Positions 15,859-63,659 of a DNA stretch of 64,000 bases are shown here, piece by piece; the first letter of the stretch is position 1, and each line of letters opens with the position of its first letter. The stretch lies in IMG/VR virus record IMGVR_UViG_3300005436_000012; one strand, written 5' to 3'. The stretch is from a virus. Below the pieces are notes generated by a model. It searched no databases. It had not been told where the DNA came from and saw nothing but the letters and a program-made list of their open reading frames with translations. The translations under genes and the position numbers were made by a program.

Positions 15859-16626
15859 TCACGCCGCCTTTCTGGCAGCGAGTGACGCCTTGAGCGCGGC
15901 CATGATATCGACCGCCGCGGCTTGCGGCTTCTGGGCTTCGGGTTTGGGCGGCGCTGCGCCGGATTCCTTGGATGCGATCAAGGCCAGAATCTTTTCGCGA
16001 TAGCCATCCGAGAATTTCGAGGCATCGAACGTCCCCGAATAGGCCGCAATCAGACTGGAAGCCAATTCCGATTCCGCCTCGCCGATCTGGCCCAGGTCGG
16101 TGCGGTACTCTTCCGTCGCGCGGGCTTCGTGCGCGTAGAAAAGCGTGTGCGCCACGATGCCCGATTTCCCGGCGCGGATCGCCAGGACGTGTTCGCGGCT
16201 GGACATGGTGATTTTGGCGATCGCCACCGCGCCCGAACGCTTCAGCCCGTCATAAAGCAGGGCGTAAGCCTTCGAGCCGCCCTCGTCGGGCGCGATCCAG
16301 TATGCGCTTTCATAGTTGACCGGATCGACCTGAGCGATCGGAACGAATTCCGTAATCTCGGCCACGTGCGCAGACGACGGTGCCAGGGCCTTGATTTCTT
16401 CCGGCGTCACGATCACCCAGCCTTTGCCGGTCTTGTAGCCCTTCACCACGTCGGCGGGAGCGATATCGGAGCCGTCCGATTTGACGTAGGACTTCCGTCC
16501 CACCGGTTCGAGATCCGATTTCCGGAGTTCATTGAAGCTGACCGATTCACTGCGGGCGGCACATGCTAATTTCACGGGCACGCTCACGAGTCCAAATGCG
16601 ATGTGGCCTTTCCAAACGCTTGCCAT
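15859..16626 (-). CDS. ku: Ku (non-homologous end-joining DNA-end-binding protein)
   Basis: MASVWKGHIAFGLVSVPVKL is the canonical Ku N-terminus; Ku-core-like length (256 aa). Confidence 0.8.
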   Translation of the reverse strand: MASVWKGHIAFGLVSVPVKLACAARSESVSFNELRKSDLEPVGRKSYVKSDGSDIAPADVVKGYKTGKGWVIVTPEEIKALAPSSAHVAEITEFVPIAQVDPVNYESAYWIAPDEGGSKAYALLYDGLKRSGAVAIAKITMSSREHVLAIRAGKSGIVAHTLFYAHEARATEEYRTDLGQIGEAESELASSLIAAYSGTFDASKFSDGYREKILALIASKESGAAPPKPEAQKPQAAAVDIMAALKASLAARKAA

Positions 16627-16705
16627 TTTATTTGCTCTTTTCTCCCTCTGCATTGATTCGGGCTGGGGACCGGCTGGTTTGAAAAACCCAGGCTGCATTA
16701 CGAGC

Positions 16706-16897: not shown

Positions 16898-17323
16898 CTA
16901 GGCGGGTGGTTTGGTGTTCGTCTCGCTGAGCACTTGCGCAATGCGCACGTAATCTTCGGTTGACACACCGAGGCGCGGCTCGGTTTTGACGGCGTTGAAA
17001 GTTCGCTCAAACGCCAGCCATCGGCAATCGGCCAGCGCCACGATGAGCGGATCTTCCAGCGCCGTCACGCGCGCGTTCCAGGCATCGATCAGACCGCTGC
17101 CGCACGCGCCCGCGATGTAGGCGGGCTCGACGACATTGTTAACGTAGTCGCGCAGGATCGCGCGTCGCGGTTTGCCGGTGATGATACGCTGCATCATTCC
17201 GGCCAGTCCTCCGAGCTGCGCAGCGAGCGCGATCGAGCGGGCTTTGTCTCGGGCGGGCAGTTGTTCCCATTCCCAATCGAGCGAAATGAGCAGACAAGCA
17301 GCCGGACGTTCTTTCAGTTTCAT
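16898..17323 (-). CDS. hypothetical protein
   Basis: Internal Met (MKLKERP) with an AGGAGA RBS; ATGA overlap with the ligase stop. Confidence 0.4.
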   Translation of the reverse strand: MKLKERPAACLLISLDWEWEQLPARDKARSIALAAQLGGLAGMMQRIITGKPRRAILRDYVNNVVEPAYIAGACGSGLIDAWNARVTALEDPLIVALADCRWLAFERTFNAVKTEPRLGVSTEDYVRIAQVLSETNTKPPA

Positions 17324-18369
17324 TTGGCTTCTCCTTTGAATTTCAGTTGATCGATGGTGCACTCTGACGGTTCGATGTCTTCCCGCACGGCGAGAAAAAC
17401 GGACTGGCTGAGCGACCCGGATCGATGCGCGTAAAGATAACGCACTTCGACCACGGCCCCCACGGGCGGCGCGGTCTTGTTGGGCGGGATCGTGCAACGT
17501 CCCAGCTCGGTGCCGTCAAAAAGCTTCATGTTGAAACTGGATTGCACGTTGTGAGCCGCCACGATGACCGAAGCCGTCGCGACGAATTTGTATTTGAGAG
17601 CCGGTCCGCCTGAATTGGGCCGTCCCGGTGTGTAGGGCGCAATGGCGTATTTCAGCACCACGCCTTCCCTGCCCTCGGATTTGCAGCGGGCGAACAGCGC
17701 GAGTTTGGAATCCGGATCGGTCGCCGTTTCCACCACGCGGATGCCGGATTGCGAGGATCCGAAAAGCGAATGCAGCAGCCCCAGGCGATCGCTGTAACGG
17801 GACGCGCGCATGTCGGCGAGTCCGGCCAGCAGATCGAACGCCCAGATGATGTCGCCGATAATTTCGCCGTCAATGATGAAGGCCTCATACGGGCATTCGA
17901 GAGCGGCTTTGACGATAGTGCCGGGCAGCGTGTTGTTTACCCTGCCCGTCCGCGAATAGCTGGTTAGTCGGCCATCGCGCTTTTCTAAGATGATCCGGTT
18001 GCCGTCGAATTTCTCCTGGAAATAAATATCGGGATCGGGCGCGAGTGAAAGCAATTCCGCGTCCGTGATTTCGTTCAACAGCATGGGCTTCGGAACCAGC
18101 CTCGGACCGCATGGCTCGGGCTTGGCATCGAAGCCGACCGTTTCGAGCGGCGTCGCGTCTTCGCCGGGCGTATAGCCCTTGGCGAGTTTCTCGTTCAGCT
18201 TCGACTGATAAAGCGCGTTCGCGGCCGTCTCCGATGCGGCAGCCACGGTTTTGGTTTGCATCGTTCCTCCGCGCGGCCCCCAGGCGAATTGCACGGTGCC
18301 GTTATCGACGGAGGCGGTATAGACTTTGTCCGACCTCGAATCTTTGTAGTACAGGGTTTGGGTTTTCAT
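17320..18369 (-). CDS. ATP-dependent DNA ligase with N-terminal WGR-like module
   Basis: Motif I KFDGNR, III FIIDGEII, IV WAFDLL, V EGVVLK; N-terminal FAWGPRGG (WGR-like). Confidence 0.8.
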   Translation of the reverse strand: MKTQTLYYKDSRSDKVYTASVDNGTVQFAWGPRGGTMQTKTVAAASETAANALYQSKLNEKLAKGYTPGEDATPLETVGFDAKPEPCGPRLVPKPMLLNEITDAELLSLAPDPDIYFQEKFDGNRIILEKRDGRLTSYSRTGRVNNTLPGTIVKAALECPYEAFIIDGEIIGDIIWAFDLLAGLADMRASRYSDRLGLLHSLFGSSQSGIRVVETATDPDSKLALFARCKSEGREGVVLKYAIAPYTPGRPNSGGPALKYKFVATASVIVAAHNVQSSFNMKLFDGTELGRCTIPPNKTAPPVGAVVEVRYLYAHRSGSLSQSVFLAVREDIEPSECTIDQLKFKGEAK

Positions 18370-30931: not shown

Positions 30932-32173
30932 ATGCATCTCCGTGTCGTCATCGGCATTTGCGCCTGCGCGTTGGCCGTGTCTGCGCAGAATCCCAATACC
31001 GCGCGCTGGCCAGCCTTTAACGCGGGCGATCCCGATCTGTTCGTGGTCACCAACCGGGCGCAGACCAGTCTGACCGCGCCCATCGACAACGTCACTACCA
31101 CGTTTCCGGTGGCGAACATCTCTCTTTTTACTCCGCCCGTGATCGTGACCATCGAAACGGAAGTGATGCATTGTGCGGTCGCTGGCGGCGTGCTCCTGCA
31201 AGGCTGCGTGCGCGCCCAGGAAGGAACGGTGGCCGCGGCCCATCCCTCCGGCGCGTTAGTGTTCGGCTACTTCTCGGCCTGGCACTACAACCAGGTGGCG
31301 GCGGAGATCAAGGCCATCGAAGCCAACGCGACCAAACTGCCAGCCTTCAACAATCTGGGTACGCTATCGGGCACGCCCACGTTCCCGGTGACCGCACAAA
31401 TTCAGACGTTCAAAATCACGCTCAACGGCGCCGTCACTTCCTCGACGCTGGGTACCCCGATCTCGAACGGTCTGGTTTATTTCGACGTCTGTCAGAACGG
31501 CACGGGCGGATTCACGTTCGCCTGGCCGGCGGGATTTTCACTGGCGCAGATCGTCTCGCCGTCTCCCAATACCTGCAGCGTGCAGGGTTTTCAGTGGGAC
31601 GGCGCCGCGGCGATTCCTCTTTCCCCGGGAACCGCTACTGGCTCGACTTTCCCCGACGTGAAATACATGCCGGCGGCCGATTGCGTCAACGGGATGGCCG
31701 GTTCGGGTTGGTCGACGGGTCTCACCCCCGCCGCTCTTTGCCGAGCGGGCACGAACAATAAAGAGGCCTTGTTGAGCCCCTGGGGCGCGAGCGACACCGC
31801 GCAGCTTTCGATGCATTTGTCCAAAGATTGGAATTCCACGATCAACCCCTCGGTGAGCCTGGATGTGACCTCCACCGATGCGACGAACGGCCACACCATC
31901 ATCATGCAGCTGGCGACGGCTTGCGATAAGGGCGATGGATCGACCACCGACGACGTCGCGTTCAATTCGCCGCAATCGTTTTCGACCATCACGCTGAACG
32001 GAAACGCCAACCGCACCTGGACTGCGACCTTAAACAACATCACCATGACGGGTTGCGCCGCGCCGGGGGTCTTGCGCCTTCAGCTCAGCCGTACAGCCGA
32101 TACGGCCACGAATGTCGGAGTGATCGGACTCGCGATTACAGTCCCCAGAACGCTCATGCTACAGGCCAATTAA
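30932..32173 (+). CDS. secreted protein, AQNPNTARWP N-module family member 1
   Basis: Signal peptide; about 130-aa N-module shared with the 44259 ORF and the 43232 fragment; motif CAVAGGVLLQGCVRAQEGTVAAAHPSGALV. Confidence 0.5.
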   Translation: MHLRVVIGICACALAVSAQNPNTARWPAFNAGDPDLFVVTNRAQTSLTAPIDNVTTTFPVANISLFTPPVIVTIETEVMHCAVAGGVLLQGCVRAQEGTVAAAHPSGALVFGYFSAWHYNQVAAEIKAIEANATKLPAFNNLGTLSGTPTFPVTAQIQTFKITLNGAVTSSTLGTPISNGLVYFDVCQNGTGGFTFAWPAGFSLAQIVSPSPNTCSVQGFQWDGAAAIPLSPGTATGSTFPDVKYMPAADCVNGMAGSGWSTGLTPAALCRAGTNNKEALLSPWGASDTAQLSMHLSKDWNSTINPSVSLDVTSTDATNGHTIIMQLATACDKGDGSTTDDVAFNSPQSFSTITLNGNANRTWTATLNNITMTGCAAPGVLRLQLSRTADTATNVGVIGLAITVPRTLMLQAN

Positions 32174-37422: not shown

Positions 37423-38451
37423 ATGTTGTCCTGCGTAACCTATCGGGATTTCGCCCAACTCGCCCAACGCGTGCCGGCTGGCCTTCGATTGCCAGTGGCG
37501 CACCCGGTTTACAGGGATCTGATCGTCGGTCATACGTTCCGCCGAAAATTTATCCCGAAATTCTCGGAGAGTTGGTACGCAGCGAGCCTCATGCGCAACG
37601 CGATCACCAATTATGACGGGATCATTTCGGCCCGGGCTGCCGGTCAGCAGAACGATGTATGGGTTTTCAAAACGACATCCATCACCTCCGCTGCCGCGGC
37701 CACCTGGTATTCGCTCTTCAAATCAGCCGGCCAGCCCGCCGCCATAGCCCCGGCTGGAGTGACGGGAGGATCGGTGATGAACAGCGCGTCGACCGGAGCT
37801 ATTCCGATTGCCGATCCGCCCAGCGGGAACCGTTATTTGTTGACAACCGGGGTTTCAGTCCCCTCGGCCACGGGCTTTGCGGTCATGATGCTGGTCGATT
37901 TGCTGTGGGCCGCCGGAGCTGTTTCGGTCGCGTCGTCCCCGGTGACGGTTACCGGTTCAACGGTAGTCCGGTTTACCAACACCAGCACTCCGAACGCCGT
38001 GGGAAACATGCTGGCCGTCTGCATCAACGCCACCATTGGTGCCGTGGCTATCAATCCGGTATTCACCTACACCAATCAAGGAGCTACCGGCTCACGAACT
38101 TCGGCGACCTGCACGGTCGCGGCCTCGGGCGCGGCACAGCGTATCTTCCCTGCCGATGTAGCAGCGACAACCTTGCAATCCGGTGATACCGGCTTGATCT
38201 CGGTCCAGTCGTTCACCTGCTCGACCACCACGGGGACGATCGATCTCTATATCTATCGTCCGCTCATGTTGATTCCGACGATCGCCGCCAACACTTTTGT
38301 AGAACGGGATTCCACGGTGCAAATTGACGGCATCCAGCAATTGGTAGCCGGGTCGGACGCTCATATCGGATGTCTAGGATTCCTGGCGCTGCCGGGCGGC
38401 ACCAGCGCATGCGCGACACAAGAGGCTTACCTCCGCACCTGTTACGGATAG
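37423..38451 (+). CDS. hypothetical protein
   Basis: 342-aa ORF, Ser/Thr/Ala-rich. Confidence 0.4.
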   Translation: MLSCVTYRDFAQLAQRVPAGLRLPVAHPVYRDLIVGHTFRRKFIPKFSESWYAASLMRNAITNYDGIISARAAGQQNDVWVFKTTSITSAAAATWYSLFKSAGQPAAIAPAGVTGGSVMNSASTGAIPIADPPSGNRYLLTTGVSVPSATGFAVMMLVDLLWAAGAVSVASSPVTVTGSTVVRFTNTSTPNAVGNMLAVCINATIGAVAINPVFTYTNQGATGSRTSATCTVAASGAAQRIFPADVAATTLQSGDTGLISVQSFTCSTTTGTIDLYIYRPLMLIPTIAANTFVERDSTVQIDGIQQLVAGSDAHIGCLGFLALPGGTSACATQEAYLRTCYG

Positions 38452-38465
38452 GAGCATTCGTTTAG

Positions 38466-41400
38466 ATGCTCCACTACGGAAATGATGCAGGGTTCAACGT
38501 ACCCGACGGTCCAGGAGCTAGCGTTGACCCTTTCGAACAAGAGTTTCAGCGCTACCCATCCAGCAACACCGGGCGATTTAAGCGATGGATGGGCTCGCCG
38601 GCGGGATTCCGGCCGCCGCCATTTTCGCTAGAAGGCAATGCCCTAAGTGAGCCTGATCAATGGTTGCCGAACGAGGCGCCGCAGACTAATTTTGCTTTCC
38701 CAAAACTCGCAGCCGCGGCTGTTCTGCTTGCGACGCTCACGGCCTGCGCGTTCACGGCGCCGTTACCTGGACCGGCGCCCGAATCGGAAGTCAACGCCTG
38801 GTCCCAACAACCAGCCAGTAACTTAAAAAAGTTTGTTCTCCGGACGCTTAGCAGCGGTTCGGAGATCGTCACCGTCGACAAGTGGCATCCGGAACTCGCC
38901 CGGCCACGCTATGACGTCGCGCGCGGCCAATATCTCTATCCGGCGTTTCTCTACACCCAACCGGTTCCGGCACTAGAGCGGACGACGCCCGACAAGTGGG
39001 CGCCCGAGATTCAGCGCCCGCGTTTTGACGTCTCTCGCGCGCAGTATCTCTCTCAGACCGGCGCGATCCCCGATCAGCAGCAGAAGCCGGATCTGGATTC
39101 CTGGGTTCCCGAAGTCCGCCAGCCGCAGTTCGATGTCGGGCGAAGGCAGTATCTCTATCCGGCGGGCGTCCTGCCCGACCAACAGCAGAAGCCGGATCTG
39201 GATTCCTGGGTCCCCGAAGTACGGCAGCCGCAGTTCGATACCGCTCGGCGTCAGTACGTTTATCCGCCCGCTCCCATCGGTCCGGTTGTGGCCGTTTTCC
39301 TAGAGCGGACGACGGTCGATAAGTACGATCCCGGCACGGAACGGCCACGCTTTGATCTGGCGCGGCTCCAGTATCTCGCTCCGAACTTCTTCCCGGATCC
39401 GTTCCCGAGAACCCCATCGATCGAAACGATCACGATCGATAAATGGCATCTGGAAATTCAGAGGCCGCGCTTTGATCTGGGGCGGAGCCAGTATCTTTAC
39501 CCGGCCGCTGTCCTACCCGATCAGCAGCAGAAGCCGGATCTCGATTCCTGGGTCCCCGAACTCCGGCAGCCGCAGTTCGATACCGCGCGCAAACAGTATC
39601 TTTATCCATCGCACGCGGCACCGGTTTCGAGCGTATTCAGCGAGCGGACGACGCCCGACAAGTGGGCGCCCGAGATTCAGCGCCCGCAGTTCGACGTCGG
39701 GCGAAGGCAGTATCTCTATCCCGCCGGGATAGTTCCCGATCAGCAGCAGAAGCCGGATCTCGATTCCTGGGTCCCCGAAGTTCGCCAGCCGCAGTTCGAT
39801 GTCGGGCGAAGGCAGTATCTCTATCCGGCGCACATCGGGCCGATCTCGCCAGTCGTAAAAGAACGATCGACCCCGGATAAATACGACCCGGGAATCGCTC
39901 AACCGCGCTTCGACCTGGCTCGCCGGCAGGATCTGTATCCGCCACACACCGGGCCAGTTGCCCCGCCGTTAGCGGTAGTAGTCATCCCGGTCGAGCCGGA
40001 AATAAACCGCTGGTCGCAGCTGCCCTATCGCAGCCTCAAACAATGGGTTATCCGGACCTTCCAGAATCCAGCGATCTATTCACGCTGGCAGCCGGAGGGA
40101 AATCAGCCGCGCTTCGATGTCTCCCGGCGGCAGTATCTCTATCCGGTACAGGCTGGCCCGATCGCGACCGTCTTCGTAGAAACGAACAAGGTCGATAAGT
40201 GGCATCCGGAGATTCAAAGGCCGCGCTTCGATCTGGTGCGCCGGCAGGATCTCTATCAGGTTCATGGCGCGCCGATTGCGACGCGTTTCACCGAGCGTAG
40301 CGAGCAGTCCGATAAATGGGCGAGCGCGATCGAGCAGCCGCAATTTGATCTTTCCCGGCGCCAGTTCATCGTTCCGGCAGTTTCCTTCGCTTGGCCGGTT
40401 CCGACCGTCATTGAAATCAGTACGGTCGACAAATGGGTCCCGGCCGTTGAACAGCCGCAATTCGATCAAAAGCGCCAGCAAGTTCTTTCCGAGCCGCTTA
40501 CTTTATCCAGCTATCCGACGCTGGCATCGCTGCCGCTCCAGACCCCGGATAAATGGTGGCAGCCAACTCCGGATCCCGTCCGGCCAATCGATTCGCGCGC
40601 CCATCTGGACGCTGCGTCGCTGTTCATCTTCCCGCAGCCTGCCATGCAGGCCGCCGGCGGCGCGAACGCCATCACGCTGGCCTGGAAATTCGTCCACGTC
40701 GGCACGAAATCGTTTGAGCCGGTTTTAGTTCCCAATAACTGGCGCGAACGCAGCACTCCGGATAAATGGCATCCGGAAATTCAGCGGCCCAGATTCGACC
40801 AGGTCCGCCGGCAGGATCTCTATCCGGCGCTCACGAATCCCGTGGCGCCGTTGTTCGTGTCGGTTCCCTACGCCGACAAGTTCCATCCGGAAATTCAGCG
40901 GCCGCGCTTCGAGCCCAAGCGCCATCAGTATCTTTATCCGGGTTATAGCGGTCCGGTCTCAAAGGTTTTTCCAGAGACTGCGAGTGCCGACCGCTGGCAT
41001 CCGGGGATCGAGCGTCCGCGGTTTGATTTAGGACGCAGGCAGCAGCTTTACCCCGCGCATGCCGGGCCAGCAACAATACTGTTCCAAGAGACAGTATCGG
41101 CCGACCGTTGGTATCTGGAAATCCAGCGCCCGCGCTTCGACGTCAGCCGGGTACAATATCTCGGCGAGGCCTCGCCGTTCCTGTTCCAGCCGTTCCCTTC
41201 GTCGGCCAAAGGGCCCTCCGGCAAAGCGGGCGTCCAGGTCCTGGTCTGGAAACGCGGCAGCGCGGGCTCGAAATCGTTTGAGCCGGTTTTAGTCCCGAAC
41301 AATTGGATCGAGCGCAGTAGCGCTGACAAATGGCACCCGGCCATCGAGCAGCCACAGTTCGATGCCAAGCGCCTGCAGGCCCTGTATGAACCGGCTTCGT

Positions 41401-42836
41401 TCAACCCGAAGCCCTTCATATCGCCGATTTTTGCGGATCGCTGGTTCCGTCTGGCCGAGGAGCCGCGCTTTGACGTCTCCCGGCGGCAGTACATCACCGG
41501 GCCGGTTCTCGAGCTCGCCCAGGCCCAGCGCCAGGAGAATCCGTGGCCCGACCGTTGGGCTCCGCGCACCGAAGCGCCGCTCTACGATTCCAAGCGCATC
41601 CAGGGGCTCTACGAGCCTTCGGCTTTCTTCCCGCGGCCGTTCCCGAATGCGGTCACGCTCGATCAATGGTTCCCGGGCGTCGATCAGCCGCGTTTCGATC
41701 TGCGCAGGCTGCAAGCGGTTTATGAGCTGTTCTCGACGGACGCCTTCCCGCGCCCGGCGATCATTCTGGTCGACCGCTGGTTCCGTTTAACGGAAGAGCC
41801 GCGCTTCGATCTTTCCCGGCGGCAGTACATTACCGGGCCGGTCCTTGAATTGGCCCCGGCGCAGCGCGCCGAGACCGCCAAGGTCGATGAGTGGTATCCG
41901 GGCATCCAACAGCCCCTGTTCGACCTGAAACGTCTGCAGGCGGGCTACGAGCCTACTTCGTTCAATCCGCGGCCCCTCGCTTCGCCGATCTTCCTCGAGC
42001 GATGGTATCCGGGCGTTGTCCAGGCCCTGTTCGATTCGCCGCGCCGGCAGTGGATCTATCCCTGCTTCTTCCCGGATCCGCTGCCGCGAATTTTCGTATT
42101 CGCCGATCGCTGGCACCCCGCGATCGAACAGAAAGCTGCGGATCTCAAACGGCTTCAGCATCTTTATCCGCCGTTTGTCCTGGATGGCATTCCGCGCATC
42201 GAGCCGGTTTCGCTCGATAAATTCCATCCGCTGATCGAGCTGCCGCGCTTCGACATCAAGCGCGTCCAGTTCCTCTCTCCGGCGTTCATCTTACAGCTCT
42301 CCCAGCCGGCGCATGTCGAGATCACGACCGCCGACCGCTGGCATCCGGAGATTCAACGTCCGCGCTTCGATCTGAAGCGGCTCCAGTATCTCTATCCGGA
42401 GCTCGCCCGCCAGCCCTTGCCGGTCCGGCACCGCCACCGGCCGCCGCGCCTGGTGGCAGCCAATAACCGGATGTTCATCGTTCCGGCGCAAAACCGGATT
42501 TTTGAAGTGTCCGCCCGGTCCCGAATTTTCCTGGTTCAACTCATGCCGCAACCGCCCGCGCCTCCGCGTGAAAACAAAACGCCCAAGGAGCAGCTCGATT
42601 GCGGATTTGACTGGACGCTTTGGCTCAATGGCGACACGATCGTCACTTCTACCTGGGCCTTCGATCCGGGGCTGGCGAACGTCGCGACGGCTATCAACAA
42701 TAACGTGACCACCATCTGGCTCTCGGGCGGAGCGGCCGGCGTTTCTTACGCGGTCACCAATACGATCACGACCGCCTCGACGCCGGCGCGAACCGGGATC
42801 CGGACGTTGTACGTCGATTGCGCGGCAACTCTTTAA
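38466..42836 (+). CDS. giant repeat protein (1456 aa) of about 29 tandem Trp/Pro-rich 35-45-aa units
   Basis: Unit consensus DKW(H/A/V)PEIQRPRFD(V/L)xRRQYLYP; internal lipobox-like LLATLTAC near residue 90; globular Thr/Asn-rich C-terminal about 100 aa. Confidence 0.6.
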   Translation: MLHYGNDAGFNVPDGPGASVDPFEQEFQRYPSSNTGRFKRWMGSPAGFRPPPFSLEGNALSEPDQWLPNEAPQTNFAFPKLAAAAVLLATLTACAFTAPLPGPAPESEVNAWSQQPASNLKKFVLRTLSSGSEIVTVDKWHPELARPRYDVARGQYLYPAFLYTQPVPALERTTPDKWAPEIQRPRFDVSRAQYLSQTGAIPDQQQKPDLDSWVPEVRQPQFDVGRRQYLYPAGVLPDQQQKPDLDSWVPEVRQPQFDTARRQYVYPPAPIGPVVAVFLERTTVDKYDPGTERPRFDLARLQYLAPNFFPDPFPRTPSIETITIDKWHLEIQRPRFDLGRSQYLYPAAVLPDQQQKPDLDSWVPELRQPQFDTARKQYLYPSHAAPVSSVFSERTTPDKWAPEIQRPQFDVGRRQYLYPAGIVPDQQQKPDLDSWVPEVRQPQFDVGRRQYLYPAHIGPISPVVKERSTPDKYDPGIAQPRFDLARRQDLYPPHTGPVAPPLAVVVIPVEPEINRWSQLPYRSLKQWVIRTFQNPAIYSRWQPEGNQPRFDVSRRQYLYPVQAGPIATVFVETNKVDKWHPEIQRPRFDLVRRQDLYQVHGAPIATRFTERSEQSDKWASAIEQPQFDLSRRQFIVPAVSFAWPVPTVIEISTVDKWVPAVEQPQFDQKRQQVLSEPLTLSSYPTLASLPLQTPDKWWQPTPDPVRPIDSRAHLDAASLFIFPQPAMQAAGGANAITLAWKFVHVGTKSFEPVLVPNNWRERSTPDKWHPEIQRPRFDQVRRQDLYPALTNPVAPLFVSVPYADKFHPEIQRPRFEPKRHQYLYPGYSGPVSKVFPETASADRWHPGIERPRFDLGRRQQLYPAHAGPATILFQETVSADRWYLEIQRPRFDVSRVQYLGEASPFLFQPFPSSAKGPSGKAGVQVLVWKRGSAGSKSFEPVLVPNNWIERSSADKWHPAIEQPQFDAKRLQALYEPASFNPKPFISPIFADRWFRLAEEPRFDVSRRQYITGPVLELAQAQRQENPWPDRWAPRTEAPLYDSKRIQGLYEPSAFFPRPFPNAVTLDQWFPGVDQPRFDLRRLQAVYELFSTDAFPRPAIILVDRWFRLTEEPRFDLSRRQYITGPVLELAPAQRAETAKVDEWYPGIQQPLFDLKRLQAGYEPTSFNPRPLASPIFLERWYPGVVQALFDSPRRQWIYPCFFPDPLPRIFVFADRWHPAIEQKAADLKRLQHLYPPFVLDGIPRIEPVSLDKFHPLIELPRFDIKRVQFLSPAFILQLSQPAHVEITTADRWHPEIQRPRFDLKRLQYLYPELARQPLPVRHRHRPPRLVAANNRMFIVPAQNRIFEVSARSRIFLVQLMPQPPAPPRENKTPKEQLDCGFDWTLWLNGDTIVTSTWAFDPGLANVATAINNNVTTIWLSGGAAGVSYAVTNTITTASTPARTGIRTLYVDCAATL
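38877..42420 (+). repeat. in-frame tandem coding repeat array (about 29 units, many near-identical at DNA level)
   Basis: Recurring cagcagcagaagccggatctggattcctgggtccccgaagtccgccagccgcagttcgat-type units. Confidence 0.7.
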
Positions 42837-43231
42837 TCGATCTCGATGCGTTAAAACTTTTCGCGATTCTTTTTCATGCCAAACCCACCCATCCAAGGAT
42901 CCGAATTCGGGCAGGGGGAATTCGGGGACTCGCTGTTCAACGCCCCCGCGCCCGCTACTACGCCCGCGCTGATCTATGTCGCCGAGTGCCCGGTGGTCGT
43001 CATCCGCTTCCAGGATTCGGTCCTGCTCTAGGCGTGTCCCGGTAATCAGCGAGAAGGATGCAACCGACCATGGGATCGAAGGTGCACATATCTATTTTCC
43101 CTGGCGGCCGCAAACGAAGCCTGCCTCGTTCTTGTTTTGCAATTCTCACAGCGTCCTCGACATTTCCAAACGGGACCAAGACCGTACCGTCGGCTAGATC
43201 AATGAAGAACATAGCCCGAATTTAACAACAA

Positions 43232-43430
43232 ATGAAGAAGTTCCTGCTCTTCGTATTATTCGCGACCCTGGCGATAGCCCAAAACCCGAACACCGCCCGC
43301 TGGCCCGGCAGCGTCGCCACCGACACCGATCTGCTCGTGGCGGGCCAATCTCTATCCGGAGCTCGCCCGCCAGCCCTTGCCGGTCCGGCTTGGCTGCCAC
43401 CAGGCGCGGCGGCCGGTGGCGGTTTAGCGC
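43232..43430 (+). pseudogene. truncated N-terminal fragment of the AQNPNTARWP family fused to a fold-back copy of the giant repeat gene 3' end
   Basis: MKKFLLFVLFATLAIAQNPNTARWPGSVATDTDLLVAGQ, then 43345-43393 identical to about 42395-42441, then reverse complement of about 42443-42477. Confidence 0.45.
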
Positions 43431-44134
43431 CACGCGGACGATCGGATGAGCAGAACAACGGCCAAGGCGACCGGAAAGAAGTAAGCCGGTTCTGGAGTAG
43501 GCAAAGGATCGGCGGGTGGCTCAATCAGCAAGGTAGATTTAGCATATCCTACGCCGTTTCCGCCACCAGTCACTTCGACATCGGCTTGATAGGAGAATGG
43601 GACGCCCAATTGAATCGGCTCTGTGAGCACGATCTGGCGGGTCGTGAACGGTGGCGCTTCCCAGTTGTAACCGTACTTCGAATCCGACCAGATCTCGACT
43701 CCATTCCACCAGAAGTCGGCTGTGGCGTTCTCCCAAGCGGTCAGATCGTTTCCTGCCCCGACGGTCCAGTCCAGCGTGAAGGTCACTTGAGCGGGACCAG
43801 TGCCGTCAAACAATCCCGTATCGGTTGCCGTGGATTTGAAATCGAAACTGGATCGCATGAGAATTCCGTTGTAGCGTCCGCCTTGGCCGACGCTCGCCGA
43901 AAGCGAACCAGCGCCACCGGAGACGCTAGGGCCGACGTAGAGCGGGTCGCTAGCGGGGCAATCCAGATCGATGCCGGTTCCCGTGGCTGTATAGCTTTTG
44001 GTCATGCCCTCAGTGGGCGCCGTCTGACCAATATATTGGCATTGGATCGAAGCCGATCCGCTGTCGGTGAAGGTGGGTGTGGCGACAAGTATTGGCGCGA
44101 GGGCCAGCCATGTGAAAAACTTGAGATTGGGCAT
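43424..44134 (-). CDS. PEP-CTERM sorting-signal protein (exosortase substrate), antisense to the late operon
   Basis: Signal peptide MPNLKFFTWLALAPILVA; C-terminus PLPTPEPAYFFPVALAVVLLIRSSAWR = PEP motif + TM + basic tail; AAGGAAG RBS. Confidence 0.6.
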   Translation of the reverse strand: MPNLKFFTWLALAPILVATPTFTDSGSASIQCQYIGQTAPTEGMTKSYTATGTGIDLDCPASDPLYVGPSVSGGAGSLSASVGQGGRYNGILMRSSFDFKSTATDTGLFDGTGPAQVTFTLDWTVGAGNDLTAWENATADFWWNGVEIWSDSKYGYNWEAPPFTTRQIVLTEPIQLGVPFSYQADVEVTGGGNGVGYAKSTLLIEPPADPLPTPEPAYFFPVALAVVLLIRSSAWR

Positions 44135-49916: not shown

Positions 49917-51131
49917 ATGGCGGCATCAGCTATGGCAACCCCTTCAATTCATCGCCCCACACGGCTTCCGCCAGCGAGTGGGGGCGCGCCCATGATGCGT
50001 CTCTCGATTTCCTTAGATCCCACCAAAACCGGACGTGAAGCCGAAGCGCTGGAGACAACCTTAAACCGGATGATCGTGGGGCAGGCCGAAGCCGTTCAGG
50101 CCATTCTCTCGATCTATCAAACCCATGTGGCCGGACTCGCCCCGCCCTTGCGTCCCATCGGGAACTTCCTGTTTCTCGGGCCCACCGGATCCGGCAAGAC
50201 CCGCATCGTGGAGGCGACCGCCGAGGCGCTGCTGTTCAACCCGCGGGCGCTGATCAAAATCGATTGCGCCGAATTCCAGCACAGCCACGAGATCGCGAAA
50301 CTGATCGGCTCACCGCCCGGATACCTGGGACACCGGGAAACTCATGCGCTGCTGAGCCAGGAAGTCTTGAACCAGCACCACACGGCAACGGTAAAGATCA
50401 GTATCGTGCTGTTCGACGAAATTGAAAAAGCCTCGGACGCGCTGTGGAATTTATTGCTCGGGATTCTCGATAAAGGCACGCTGACGCTCGGAGACAACCG
50501 CCGGGTCGATTTCTCGCAGGCCTTGATCTTCATGACCTCCAACCTCGGCGCGAGCGAGATGAACGCTCTCCTGCATCCGAGCTTCGGGTTCCACGGCGCG
50601 CCGGCGGAGGTGGAAGCCAAGAAGATCTCCAAGATCGGCCTGGCGGCGTCCCGGCGGAAATTCACGCCCGAGTTCGTCAACCGCCTGGACCGGATCGTGA
50701 CCTTCAAGCCGCTCGGCGCCGAGCAGCTCGACAAAATCCTGGACATCGAATTGAACCTGGTCCAGCAGCGCATTTTTAACGGAGGCGGGCGCGCCTTCGT
50801 CTTTAAAATGAGCCTGGAGGCCAGAGTCCTGCTGCTCGAGCAAGGCACGGATCTCAAATACGGCGCCCGGCATTTGAAACGCGCCATCGAACGCCTGCTG
50901 GTCCAGCCGCTCTCGAACCTGCTGGCCTCCAATCAATTGCGCGGAGGCGACAGCGTGCAGGTCGACCGCCAGGCCGGGGTTTTGAGCTTTATCAAAGACG
51001 GCGAAGGCCTCGCGGCCGGCGCCATGGCCGACCTGGTCGATCGCTCGATTTCAGCGCCGTCCCCGGTCTTCACGGGCGCGATCGAAAGCCGGACCACCGA
51101 ACTACGCGCCCGCTCCTCGAGGCGCGGATAG
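49917..51131 (+). CDS. stand-alone Clp/Hsp100 D2-type (AAA_2) ATPase
   Basis: VGQAEAVQAI...GNFLFLGPTGSGKTRIVEA...IKIDCAEFQHSHEIAKLIGSPPGYLGH is the ClpA/B D2 signature; Walker B VLFDEIEKA; sensor GARHLKRAIE. Confidence 0.7.
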   Translation: MAASAMATPSIHRPTRLPPASGGAPMMRLSISLDPTKTGREAEALETTLNRMIVGQAEAVQAILSIYQTHVAGLAPPLRPIGNFLFLGPTGSGKTRIVEATAEALLFNPRALIKIDCAEFQHSHEIAKLIGSPPGYLGHRETHALLSQEVLNQHHTATVKISIVLFDEIEKASDALWNLLLGILDKGTLTLGDNRRVDFSQALIFMTSNLGASEMNALLHPSFGFHGAPAEVEAKKISKIGLAASRRKFTPEFVNRLDRIVTFKPLGAEQLDKILDIELNLVQQRIFNGGGRAFVFKMSLEARVLLLEQGTDLKYGARHLKRAIERLLVQPLSNLLASNQLRGGDSVQVDRQAGVLSFIKDGEGLAAGAMADLVDRSISAPSPVFTGAIESRTTELRARSSRRG

Positions 51132-63338: not shown

Positions 63339-63659
63339 GTGACGCGCCGCGAATTGTTCGCCACCCTGGGCTTAGGCATTGCTCAATCACGGCCGCCTCA
63401 GGCCGGAGCCAGGGTCCCCGAAATCAGCGCAATCACGAAGCGCCAAATCACGGCCGGCACAATCACCGTCGAGAGACTCGCGCCGATACCGCACTTCTCG
63501 ATGACCGATTGTTTAACGGCGGCCAGATTGAACGAGTTGGTCGATGGAATCAACACACTGCACCGAGCTATGAGGCGTACGGCGGCCAGATTGAACGAGT
63601 TGGTCGATGGAATCAACACACTGCACCGAGCTATGAGGCGTCACGGAATAATCGAATGA
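63339..63659 (+). CDS. small protein with TAT-leader-like N-terminus and internal 21-aa tandem duplication
   Basis: MTRRELFATLGLGIAQS; TAARLNELVDGINTLHRAMRR appears twice. Confidence 0.35.
   Translation: MTRRELFATLGLGIAQSRPPQAGARVPEISAITKRQITAGTITVERLAPIPHFSMTDCLTAARLNELVDGINTLHRAMRRTAARLNELVDGINTLHRAMRRHGIIE
63516..63641 (+). repeat. perfect 63-bp tandem direct duplication (2 copies)
   Basis: acggcggccagattgaacgagttggtcgatggaatcaacacactgcaccgagctatgaggcgt occurs twice consecutively. Confidence 0.8.

Follow-up and report, generated by a model that had tools for sequence, protein, structure and literature searches.

The stretch of DNA studied here, called the window below, comprises 64,000 nucleotides (nt) of an uncultured phage (IMG/VR record IMGVR_UViG_3300005436_000012). 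Its longest gene is an open reading frame (ORF) on the plus strand at 38466-42836, which encodes a protein of 1,456 amino acids (aa), as originally predicted. Our reading, which is plausible but tentative and comes from sequence comparison, is that this giant protein may be the backbone of a very long and flexible whisker or fibre, anchored at the collar of the virion, whose length changes in whole repeat units. The window is clearly a phage genome, with TerL (the large terminase subunit) and a P22-like coat protein recognised by Pfam and PHROGs, and several fibre-like ORFs surround the giant gene, in agreement with its earlier placement in the late region. The host is probably a member of the Acidobacteriota. 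The source contig is ~72 kb long; the window scans reported below cover 64 kb of it, and ~8 kb falls outside.

The main evidence lies at the C-terminus. The last ~125 aa are non-repetitive, as had been noted before, but this Thr- and Asn-rich end is not an unplaced sequence, as it contains a recognisable domain. Residues 1371-1438 match Pfam family PF23148 ('Podophage GP4 fiber-tail adaptor protein gp77') with an E-value of 2.4e-19 and a score of 70.1 bits, against a cut-off of 27, and the match spans positions 1-73 of the 84 in the profile. The domain also matches the GP4 protein in the PDB (8JOU_D, 93 aa, E 1e-7) and phrog_4137. Together with the stop codon, this Gp77-like collar (fibre-tail adaptor) domain occupies 42576-42836 on the plus strand. 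The function of this family is known from GP4 only. There, the 93-aa adaptor is an immunoglobulin-like (Ig-like) protein, which assembles into a 15-mer that encircles the dodecameric head-to-tail adaptor and keeps the fibres attached (PMC11445570). The presence of a Gp77 domain therefore fixes the probable place of the giant protein in the virion.

The domain is joined to the rest of the protein by a linker (42423-42575, plus strand), which consists of RHRHRPPRLVAA, then the three related segments NRMFIV, NRIFEV and SRIFLV, which AlphaFold2 predicts as strands with low confidence, and finally a Pro-rich stretch. A similar triplet is carried by P0004, one of the relatives described below (proteins are labelled P and loci L). 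A tblastn search of GenBank phages found stand-alone Gp77-like ORFs of ~92 aa, located among the minor tail genes in phages of Gordonia and Mycobacterium. The homology to these actinophage proteins begins at about residues 1338-1342, which is ~30 aa before the Pfam domain, and thus extends across the short strands.

Before the collar domain comes a long repetitive region. The same order is found in phage Bas63, where an extended rope forms the N-terminal part of the Ig-like collar protein, with whisker dimers wrapped on it like beads on a string (PMC12609058). It is this shared order, rope and then collar, which leads us to interpret the giant protein as the backbone of a whisker or fibre anchored at the collar.

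The repetitive region (38868-42422, plus strand, residues 135-1319) is an array of 28 'DKW' units, which were located by an iterated profile search of the protein against itself and by alignment of the units. The independent E-values of the units range from 1e-12 to 1e-20. About 29 units had been counted by the original prediction, a number which would be reached by including one or two degenerate copies. Units start mostly 35-40 aa apart. Their core is DKWxPEIxxPRFDxxRxQYLYP and their consensus xxxDxWxPEIxxPRFDxxRxQYLYP, followed by a variable Pro-rich linker. Within the consensus, R and Q are invariant, while D, P and D are present in at least 90% of units. The array is rich in Pro (13.2%), Arg (9.2%) and Gln (8.3%), contains 3.0% Trp, and is broken by three non-repeat insertions, at residues 500-537, 682-762 and 912-950. 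At the DNA level the repeat families are spaced by 105 or 114 nt. Identity reaches 82% (over 105 nt) for the two most similar units and 87% over 200 nt for one block of two units, with a median of 49% across pairs. Several units had been described as nearly identical in their DNA, which is an overstatement.

Two further elements recur in the giant protein. The first, N.WSQ.P...LK..V.RT, occurs at residues 108-128 and 511-531. The second, G..A..VL.WK....GSKSFEPVLVPNNW.ERS, occurs at residues 724-762 and 913-950, and is also found in P0001 and P0003. They may be traces of an ancient duplication of a block, or docking sites of a second type.

The number of units varies, from 2 to 26 across the repeat family described below and also between assemblies of this phage. 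A second assembly is publicly available (L012; ENA ERZ27264997, contig k141_5073274, 72,172 bp), and is 100% identical to positions 27423-48556 of the window, except for one base and one deletion of 105 nt. It encodes a protein of 1,421 aa with 27 units, compared to 1,456 aa and 28 units here, and lacks AGIVPDQQQKPDLDSWVPEVRQPQFDVGRRQYLYP. The missing unit is at 39722-39826 on the plus strand, although its placement is ambiguous within an identical stretch of 26 nt: the junction of the deletion lies within 39696-39721, of which there is a copy 105 nt downstream, and this stretch is shared by the neighbouring units. Collapse of the repeats is unlikely, because the shared 26 nt are far below the assembler k of 141 that is implied by the contig name. 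The two assemblies possibly derive from the same reads, and a third assembly is broken inside the repeat array. An assembly artefact was considered and rejected, given that two assemblies agree. The one-unit difference supports the idea of unequal recombination within the array, through which its length would change in whole units, as had been suggested from the similarity of the units.

The repeat unit has no match in Pfam, PHROGs or NCBIfam, and its profile has no match among PDB sequences. The unit had been considered unlike any described repeat, and this holds: we found no homology to a described family. A profile search of 1.84 billion representative proteins found 117 proteins at E ≤1e-3, with 1-26 matched stretches in each, and a word-indexed search of 5.8 billion clusters gave six matches at ~30% identity. 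Within the reach of the scans, there were no members in 50,697 GenBank phage records, IMG/VR or GTDB representative genomes. These searches define the DKW unit as what appears to be a rare and undescribed repeat family.

Members of the family are located in tail or fibre modules. One of them (in L014) is encoded directly upstream of an SU10-type adaptor gene, and genes with a lectin-like Laminin_G_3 domain precede members in five loci (L002, L003, L005, L014 and L015). Two of the 86 members scanned contain a Laminin_G_3 domain themselves, and two contain Gp77, namely the giant protein and P0004. Rope and Gp77 are thus fused in these two proteins and separate in other family members. The gene of P0005, from locus L004, comes two genes after that of a 274-aa protein, in which two stretches match the Pfam family Gp80 (GP4 Fiber-I; E 4.3e-15). 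At two loci a different repetitive gene takes the same position as the giant gene: in L008 (2411-4024) units of ~22 aa rich in Ala, Thr and Ser were seen by eye, and in L009 (11239-12192) the repeat is rich in Ala, Gly and Val. Different phages may carry interchangeable middle parts of repetitive sequence. These strand-like repeats have no detectable sequence similarity to GP4 gp79.

Most members of the family begin with M..LQYQ..AEP followed by an Ala-rich hydrophobic segment. The first ~75 aa of the giant protein differ from this. They form an N-terminal module (38466-38690, plus strand, MLHYGNDAGFNVPDG...FRPPPF) with homologues at three other loci. In L005 the module is a separate ORF of 78 aa just before the repeat protein, so that it is fused in one phage and apart in the other, much as is seen for the rope and Gp77; in L008 it heads the 537-aa protein with the unrelated Ala/Thr/Ser-rich repeat. 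In all three loci it comes right after a homologue of the gene upstream of the giant gene, W_37423 (37423-38451, plus strand, 342 aa), which is a candidate partner of the module. The W_37423 proteins are 76-78% identical in L005 and L008, and in L007, where the module lies just after the homologue, the E-value is 4e-7. In L007 (NCBI GCA_964426535.1, 8507-11528) this two-gene cassette is a small island: it is flanked by a sigma-54 regulator on one side and QueC/radical-SAM genes on the other, the surroundings are ordinary bacterial genes, and no phage genes were found nearby.

A Shine-Dalgarno-like AGGAG is read from the sequence at 38450-38454 (plus strand), 11 nt ahead of the ATG at 38466. 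The stop codon of the upstream gene is at 38449-38451, and the giant ORF begins 15 nt after it. The GC content at third codon positions is 0.71, and the pattern of GC over the codon positions is like that of the adjoining genes.

AlphaFold2 was used to predict the structure of residues 1138-1456 (the last five units and the C-terminus), using an alignment of 45 in-phase five-unit windows from the protein and its homologues. The mean predicted local distance difference test (pLDDT) score was 39, with coil throughout the repeats and no helices. Modelling of consecutive units had been proposed as a way to look for a β-solenoid, and none is seen in the five units modelled. The lack of helices, together with 13% Pro, bears out the earlier view that the protein is not α-helical in the manner of a tape measure. 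As weak evidence, the prediction would rule out a confident monomeric solenoid for the repeats. It would fit a rope that depends on partners, and would fit equally a shaft that depends on oligomerisation.

We suggest the following arrangement. The three short strands and the Gp77-type domain, which is probably Ig-like, would place the protein in a collar ring that encircles the head-to-tail adaptor, such as is formed by 15 copies in GP4 and by 12 copies in Bas63. The 1,200-1,300 aa or so before this anchor would be non-globular, and would project from the neck as a long, thin and periodic rope. Of the roles first proposed (periodic extended fibre, ruler, multivalent binder or host-range determinant), the extended fibre is the one towards which the evidence points. 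Each unit motif would most likely be a repeated site of docking or strand insertion, either for partner subunits or for neighbouring chains. The ~75-aa module would be at the far end of the whisker as a separate interaction module, probably for the jelly-roll protein encoded upstream. The number of units would set the length of the whisker, and would change by whole units through unequal recombination between neighbours. The position in the virion, the extended conformation and the docking of partners are inferred, as is a role either in contacting the host surface or in bracing head and tail.

A more specific proposal, which we regard as unlikely and put forward as speculation, is that the DKW unit is a new rope repeat, in which each ~37-aa copy would capture one partner, to give bottle-brush whiskers with up to 28 subunits per chain. 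If this is true, valency and length may both be tuned in whole units by unequal recombination. We know of no solved phage structure with an appendage built in this way. The partners may be lectin-like proteins, jelly-roll proteins or the family of W_26828 (26828-27286, plus strand); W_37423, W_36909 and the fibre-like proteins at 30932, 44259 and 45605 are further candidate partners of the units. W_26828 represents a very conserved family of 152-aa proteins with no Pfam or PHROGs match, for which 331 proteins were found at E ≤1e-3 in a database clustered at 90%, with identities of 47-88% among the matches listed (120 of the 331). It is also present in L002, L003, L004, L014, L015 and L016, and in six of the seven loci examined a DKW-repeat gene is no more than 10 kb from it. 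It is followed by a Cys-rich protein of ~100 aa (the W_30308 family).

Searches for partners resembling those of GP4, in which a separate and longer rope protein interlocks with the collar and threads five dimers of Fiber-1 (gp80) (PMC12609058), were negative. Phmmer searches with gp80 and a Gp80-family protein gave only E >0.7 against all six-frame ORFs of the window, and hhalign comparison of the W_26828 and W_37423 families with a small Gp80-like set was also negative. Neither W_26828 nor the two upstream proteins gave anything significant against PDB sequences or anything relevant in Pfam, PHROGs or NCBIfam. At other loci, two proteins looked gp80-like by eye (L008_865 and L009_9119) and a 317-aa protein of L009 looked gp79-like, but none of these was confirmed by Pfam or phmmer; L009_9119 matches only phrog_3758, 'virion structural protein'. 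A Gp80-family gene near a member of the repeat family was seen only in L004, the locus of a distant relative.

Several observations weigh against a collar-anchored whisker. No Gp80-type bead gene was found among the window ORFs scanned (by Pfam, and by PHROGs on the neighbours), and phmmer found no sequence similarity between the rope of GP4, gp79, and the unit in the window or related loci. The conserved D, K, W, D, R and Q of the unit look more specific than would be needed for simple strand augmentation. Siphophages, too, have Gp77-like ORFs among their minor tail genes, which means that a location at the neck is not guaranteed. Nor did the AlphaFold2 run give a confident fold for the Gp77 domain (pLDDT <50, with two sequences covering the domain), and a low pLDDT is also to be expected from a homotrimeric fibre modelled as a monomer. 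Finally, we found no cultured phage with the DKW repeat.

The best-surviving alternative, which we consider somewhat unlikely, is that the collar domain anchors chains whose repeats assemble with each other into a homo-oligomeric (for example trimeric) β shaft, with no beads and with the N-terminal module as its distal tip. The fusion of a collar domain with a fibre is already known from DEV gp53, where N-terminal domains form a 15-mer collar and five trimeric long fibres have been proposed (PMC11445570). The lack of a bead gene in the window is as this alternative would have it, and a motif conserved across very divergent phages would suit a unit of packing between chains. Folds that depend on oligomerisation are invisible to a prediction made on a monomer. 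In addition, lectin-like domains are fused to family members or adjacent to them, as they are in fibres. However, the collar of DEV is N-terminal, whereas the order here is the reverse and matches that of the Bas63 rope. A regular shaft is made harder by 13% Pro, variable linkers and insertions, and the unit matches no known family of fibre-shaft repeats.

A different kind of alternative arises from the DNA at the end of the array. The left copy of a repeat pair (42388-42463) lies at the boundary between array and collar, and consists of a 42-nt element, X (42388-42429, the end of the last unit), followed by the 34-nt arm of an inverted repeat (IR-L, 42430-42463). The right copy (43348-43423) consists of X' (43348-43389) and IR-R (43390-43423), and is located after the remnant of a fibre gene, abutting the stop codon of a gene on the minus strand. 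X and X' are a perfect direct repeat, and IR-R is the perfect reverse complement of IR-L. The arms are 926 nt apart, the left one being inside the giant gene. A rearrangement scar derived from the 3' end of the gene had been reported here, and it is real.

It has to be considered whether the 34-nt inverted repeats form a switch, which by flipping 42464-43389 would cut the collar off the rope in the manner of the Mu G and P1 C segments. The perfection of the repeat and the position of one arm at the rope/collar junction are what such a switch would need, but we think it improbable. None of the window ORFs that were scanned has a recombinase domain, the flipped orientation would add only antisense-derived sequence and no alternative domain, L012 has the same orientation, the 34-mer is absent from the metagenome collection, and no flipped variant was found. 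An actively inverting segment was therefore rejected, as the scanned ORFs include no adjacent invertase gene and the opposite orientation offers no alternative segment coding for a C-terminus. The suggestion of a recombination hot-spot remains plausible, if not as an active switch: the pair reads as the footprint of a recombination event that joined modules, or otherwise as a dormant inversion site.

Positions 43232-43347 (plus strand) hold the remnant of a fibre gene N-terminus of 37 aa (AQNPNTARWPG...DTDLLVA), to which the beginnings of ORFs 30932 and 44259 are paralogous. The remnant runs into the repeat copy in another frame and is thus a pseudogene. The minus-strand gene at 43424-44134, opposite in direction to the fibre cluster, encodes a protein that starts with a signal-like sequence and ends in a PEP-CTERM-like one (PTPEPAYFFPVALAVVLLIRSSAWR). 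It was not recognised by Pfam or NCBIfam, and is probably a host-derived insertion.

The possibility that the giant protein is an internal ruler, or an ejection protein packaged in the head or the tail channel, is very improbable, and with it the ruler among the roles first proposed. The protein is very long and periodic, its unit number varies, and it has a hydrophobic segment near its N-terminus, all of which would be in keeping with such a role. In contrast, it is not α-helical and it carries a collar-type domain, which is external. The coat protein is P22-like, and no tail genes of long-tailed phages (siphophages or myophages) were recognised among the window ORFs scanned. Moreover, the change of one unit between genomes that are otherwise identical would not be expected of a strict ruler.

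The hydrophobic segment (38703-38768, plus strand) is rich in Ala and Leu, and contains LLATLTAC. Comparable segments are found near the N-termini of P0001, P0004, P0052, P0053 and the L014 protein. The idea that the giant gene encodes a cell-envelope lipoprotein, or a secreted surface protein outside the virion, starting from an internal TTG near 38667, is hardly credible and was rejected: LLATLTAC does fit the lipobox pattern and neighbouring ORFs have N-termini resembling signal peptides, but the motif is placed 94 aa from the beginning of the ORF, the ~70 aa ahead of the internal TTG show conservation at the protein level in L005, L008 and L007, the Cys is not conserved in the family (P0001 has LTAVAF, and P0052, P0053 and the L014 protein have no Cys at that place), the ATG at 38466 is preceded by AGGAG and abuts the previous gene, and the C-terminus is a virion adaptor domain.

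Elsewhere in the window, hydrophobic N-termini that resemble signal peptides in sequence are present on the fibre-like or late ORFs 30932, 34455, 44259, 45605, 46567, 60757 and 61567. This is unusual for virion proteins, and small proteins encoded beside the repeat gene in L002, L003 and L005 have such N-termini as well. The minus strand encodes a Ku homologue (15859-16698) and, near it, an ATP-dependent DNA ligase with a WGR domain (17320-18369), which make up a phage-encoded end-joining pair. The window also encodes ParB, a DUF2201/VWA protein and a ClpB-like AAA protein (49917-51131). Within a small ORF on the plus strand (63339-63659), TAARLNELVDGINTLHRAMRR is exactly duplicated.

The analysis also corrects how the giant gene, the largest in this genome, is annotated: it encodes neither a lipoprotein nor a tape measure. 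The DKW family has no Pfam or PHROGs entry, no solved structure and no cultured representative, yet comprises more than 100 clusters of proteins from uncultured phages. The natural series from 2 to 28 units, together with the one-unit polymorphism within a single phage population, lends itself to the study of what determines the length and valency of neck appendages in phages.

It remains to compare the giant protein with known systems. Tape-measure proteins are α-helical proteins found inside long tails, and their repeat number relates to physical length. The giant protein is similarly long and internally repetitive. It differs in its 13% Pro, in having no predicted helices, in its external collar domain, and in being encoded by a genome whose coat protein is P22-like and in which no long-tail genes were recognised. 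A tape-measure protein was rejected on three of these grounds, namely the prediction of coil only, the Pro content (13.2%) and the lack of recognised long-tail genes. T4 fibritin (wac) is a trimeric coiled coil, and has no resemblance to the giant protein in sequence or composition. It is a possible functional analogue, as it forms whiskers attached to the neck (PMC12609058).

DEV, an N4-like phage of Pseudomonas, is closer. The collar β domain of gp53 has a topology like that of the GP4 adaptor and is fused to a long fibre (PMC11445570). It is set apart, as described, by the N-terminal position of its collar, and by a fibre that is proposed to be trimeric and is not built from the DKW repeats.

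The closest likenesses are to GP4 and Bas63, the two phages from which collar-rope-whisker assemblies have been described, and only in 2023-2025. The C-terminus of the giant protein is a member of the Pfam family named after GP4 gp77 and matches 8JOU_D, the concept of a rope plus a collar is common to both, and one relative of the repeat protein (in L004) has a Gp80-family neighbour. In GP4 the collar, rope and fibre proteins gp77, gp79 and gp80 are separate, with 93, 325 and 140 aa respectively, whereas the giant protein fuses rope and collar. Its rope is ~4 times longer than gp79, which is Gly/Ala-rich and undetectably similar to the DKW unit. The likeness to Bas63, a myophage of the genus Felixounavirus, is one of architecture: a single chain has an extended N-terminal segment and then a collar domain, which in Bas63 is Ig-like and rings the neck, as that of the giant protein probably does. 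The Bas63 collar was related to the GP4 adaptor by structural comparison by its authors (PMC12609058), and that of the giant protein by sequence. The rope of Bas63 holds two whisker dimers (gp5), while the giant protein has ~1,300 aa and 28 units of a different repeat, and no whisker or Gp80-like gene was found in the window. The giant gene suggests that the design seen in GP4 and Bas63 can be scaled up about tenfold using a completely different rope sequence.

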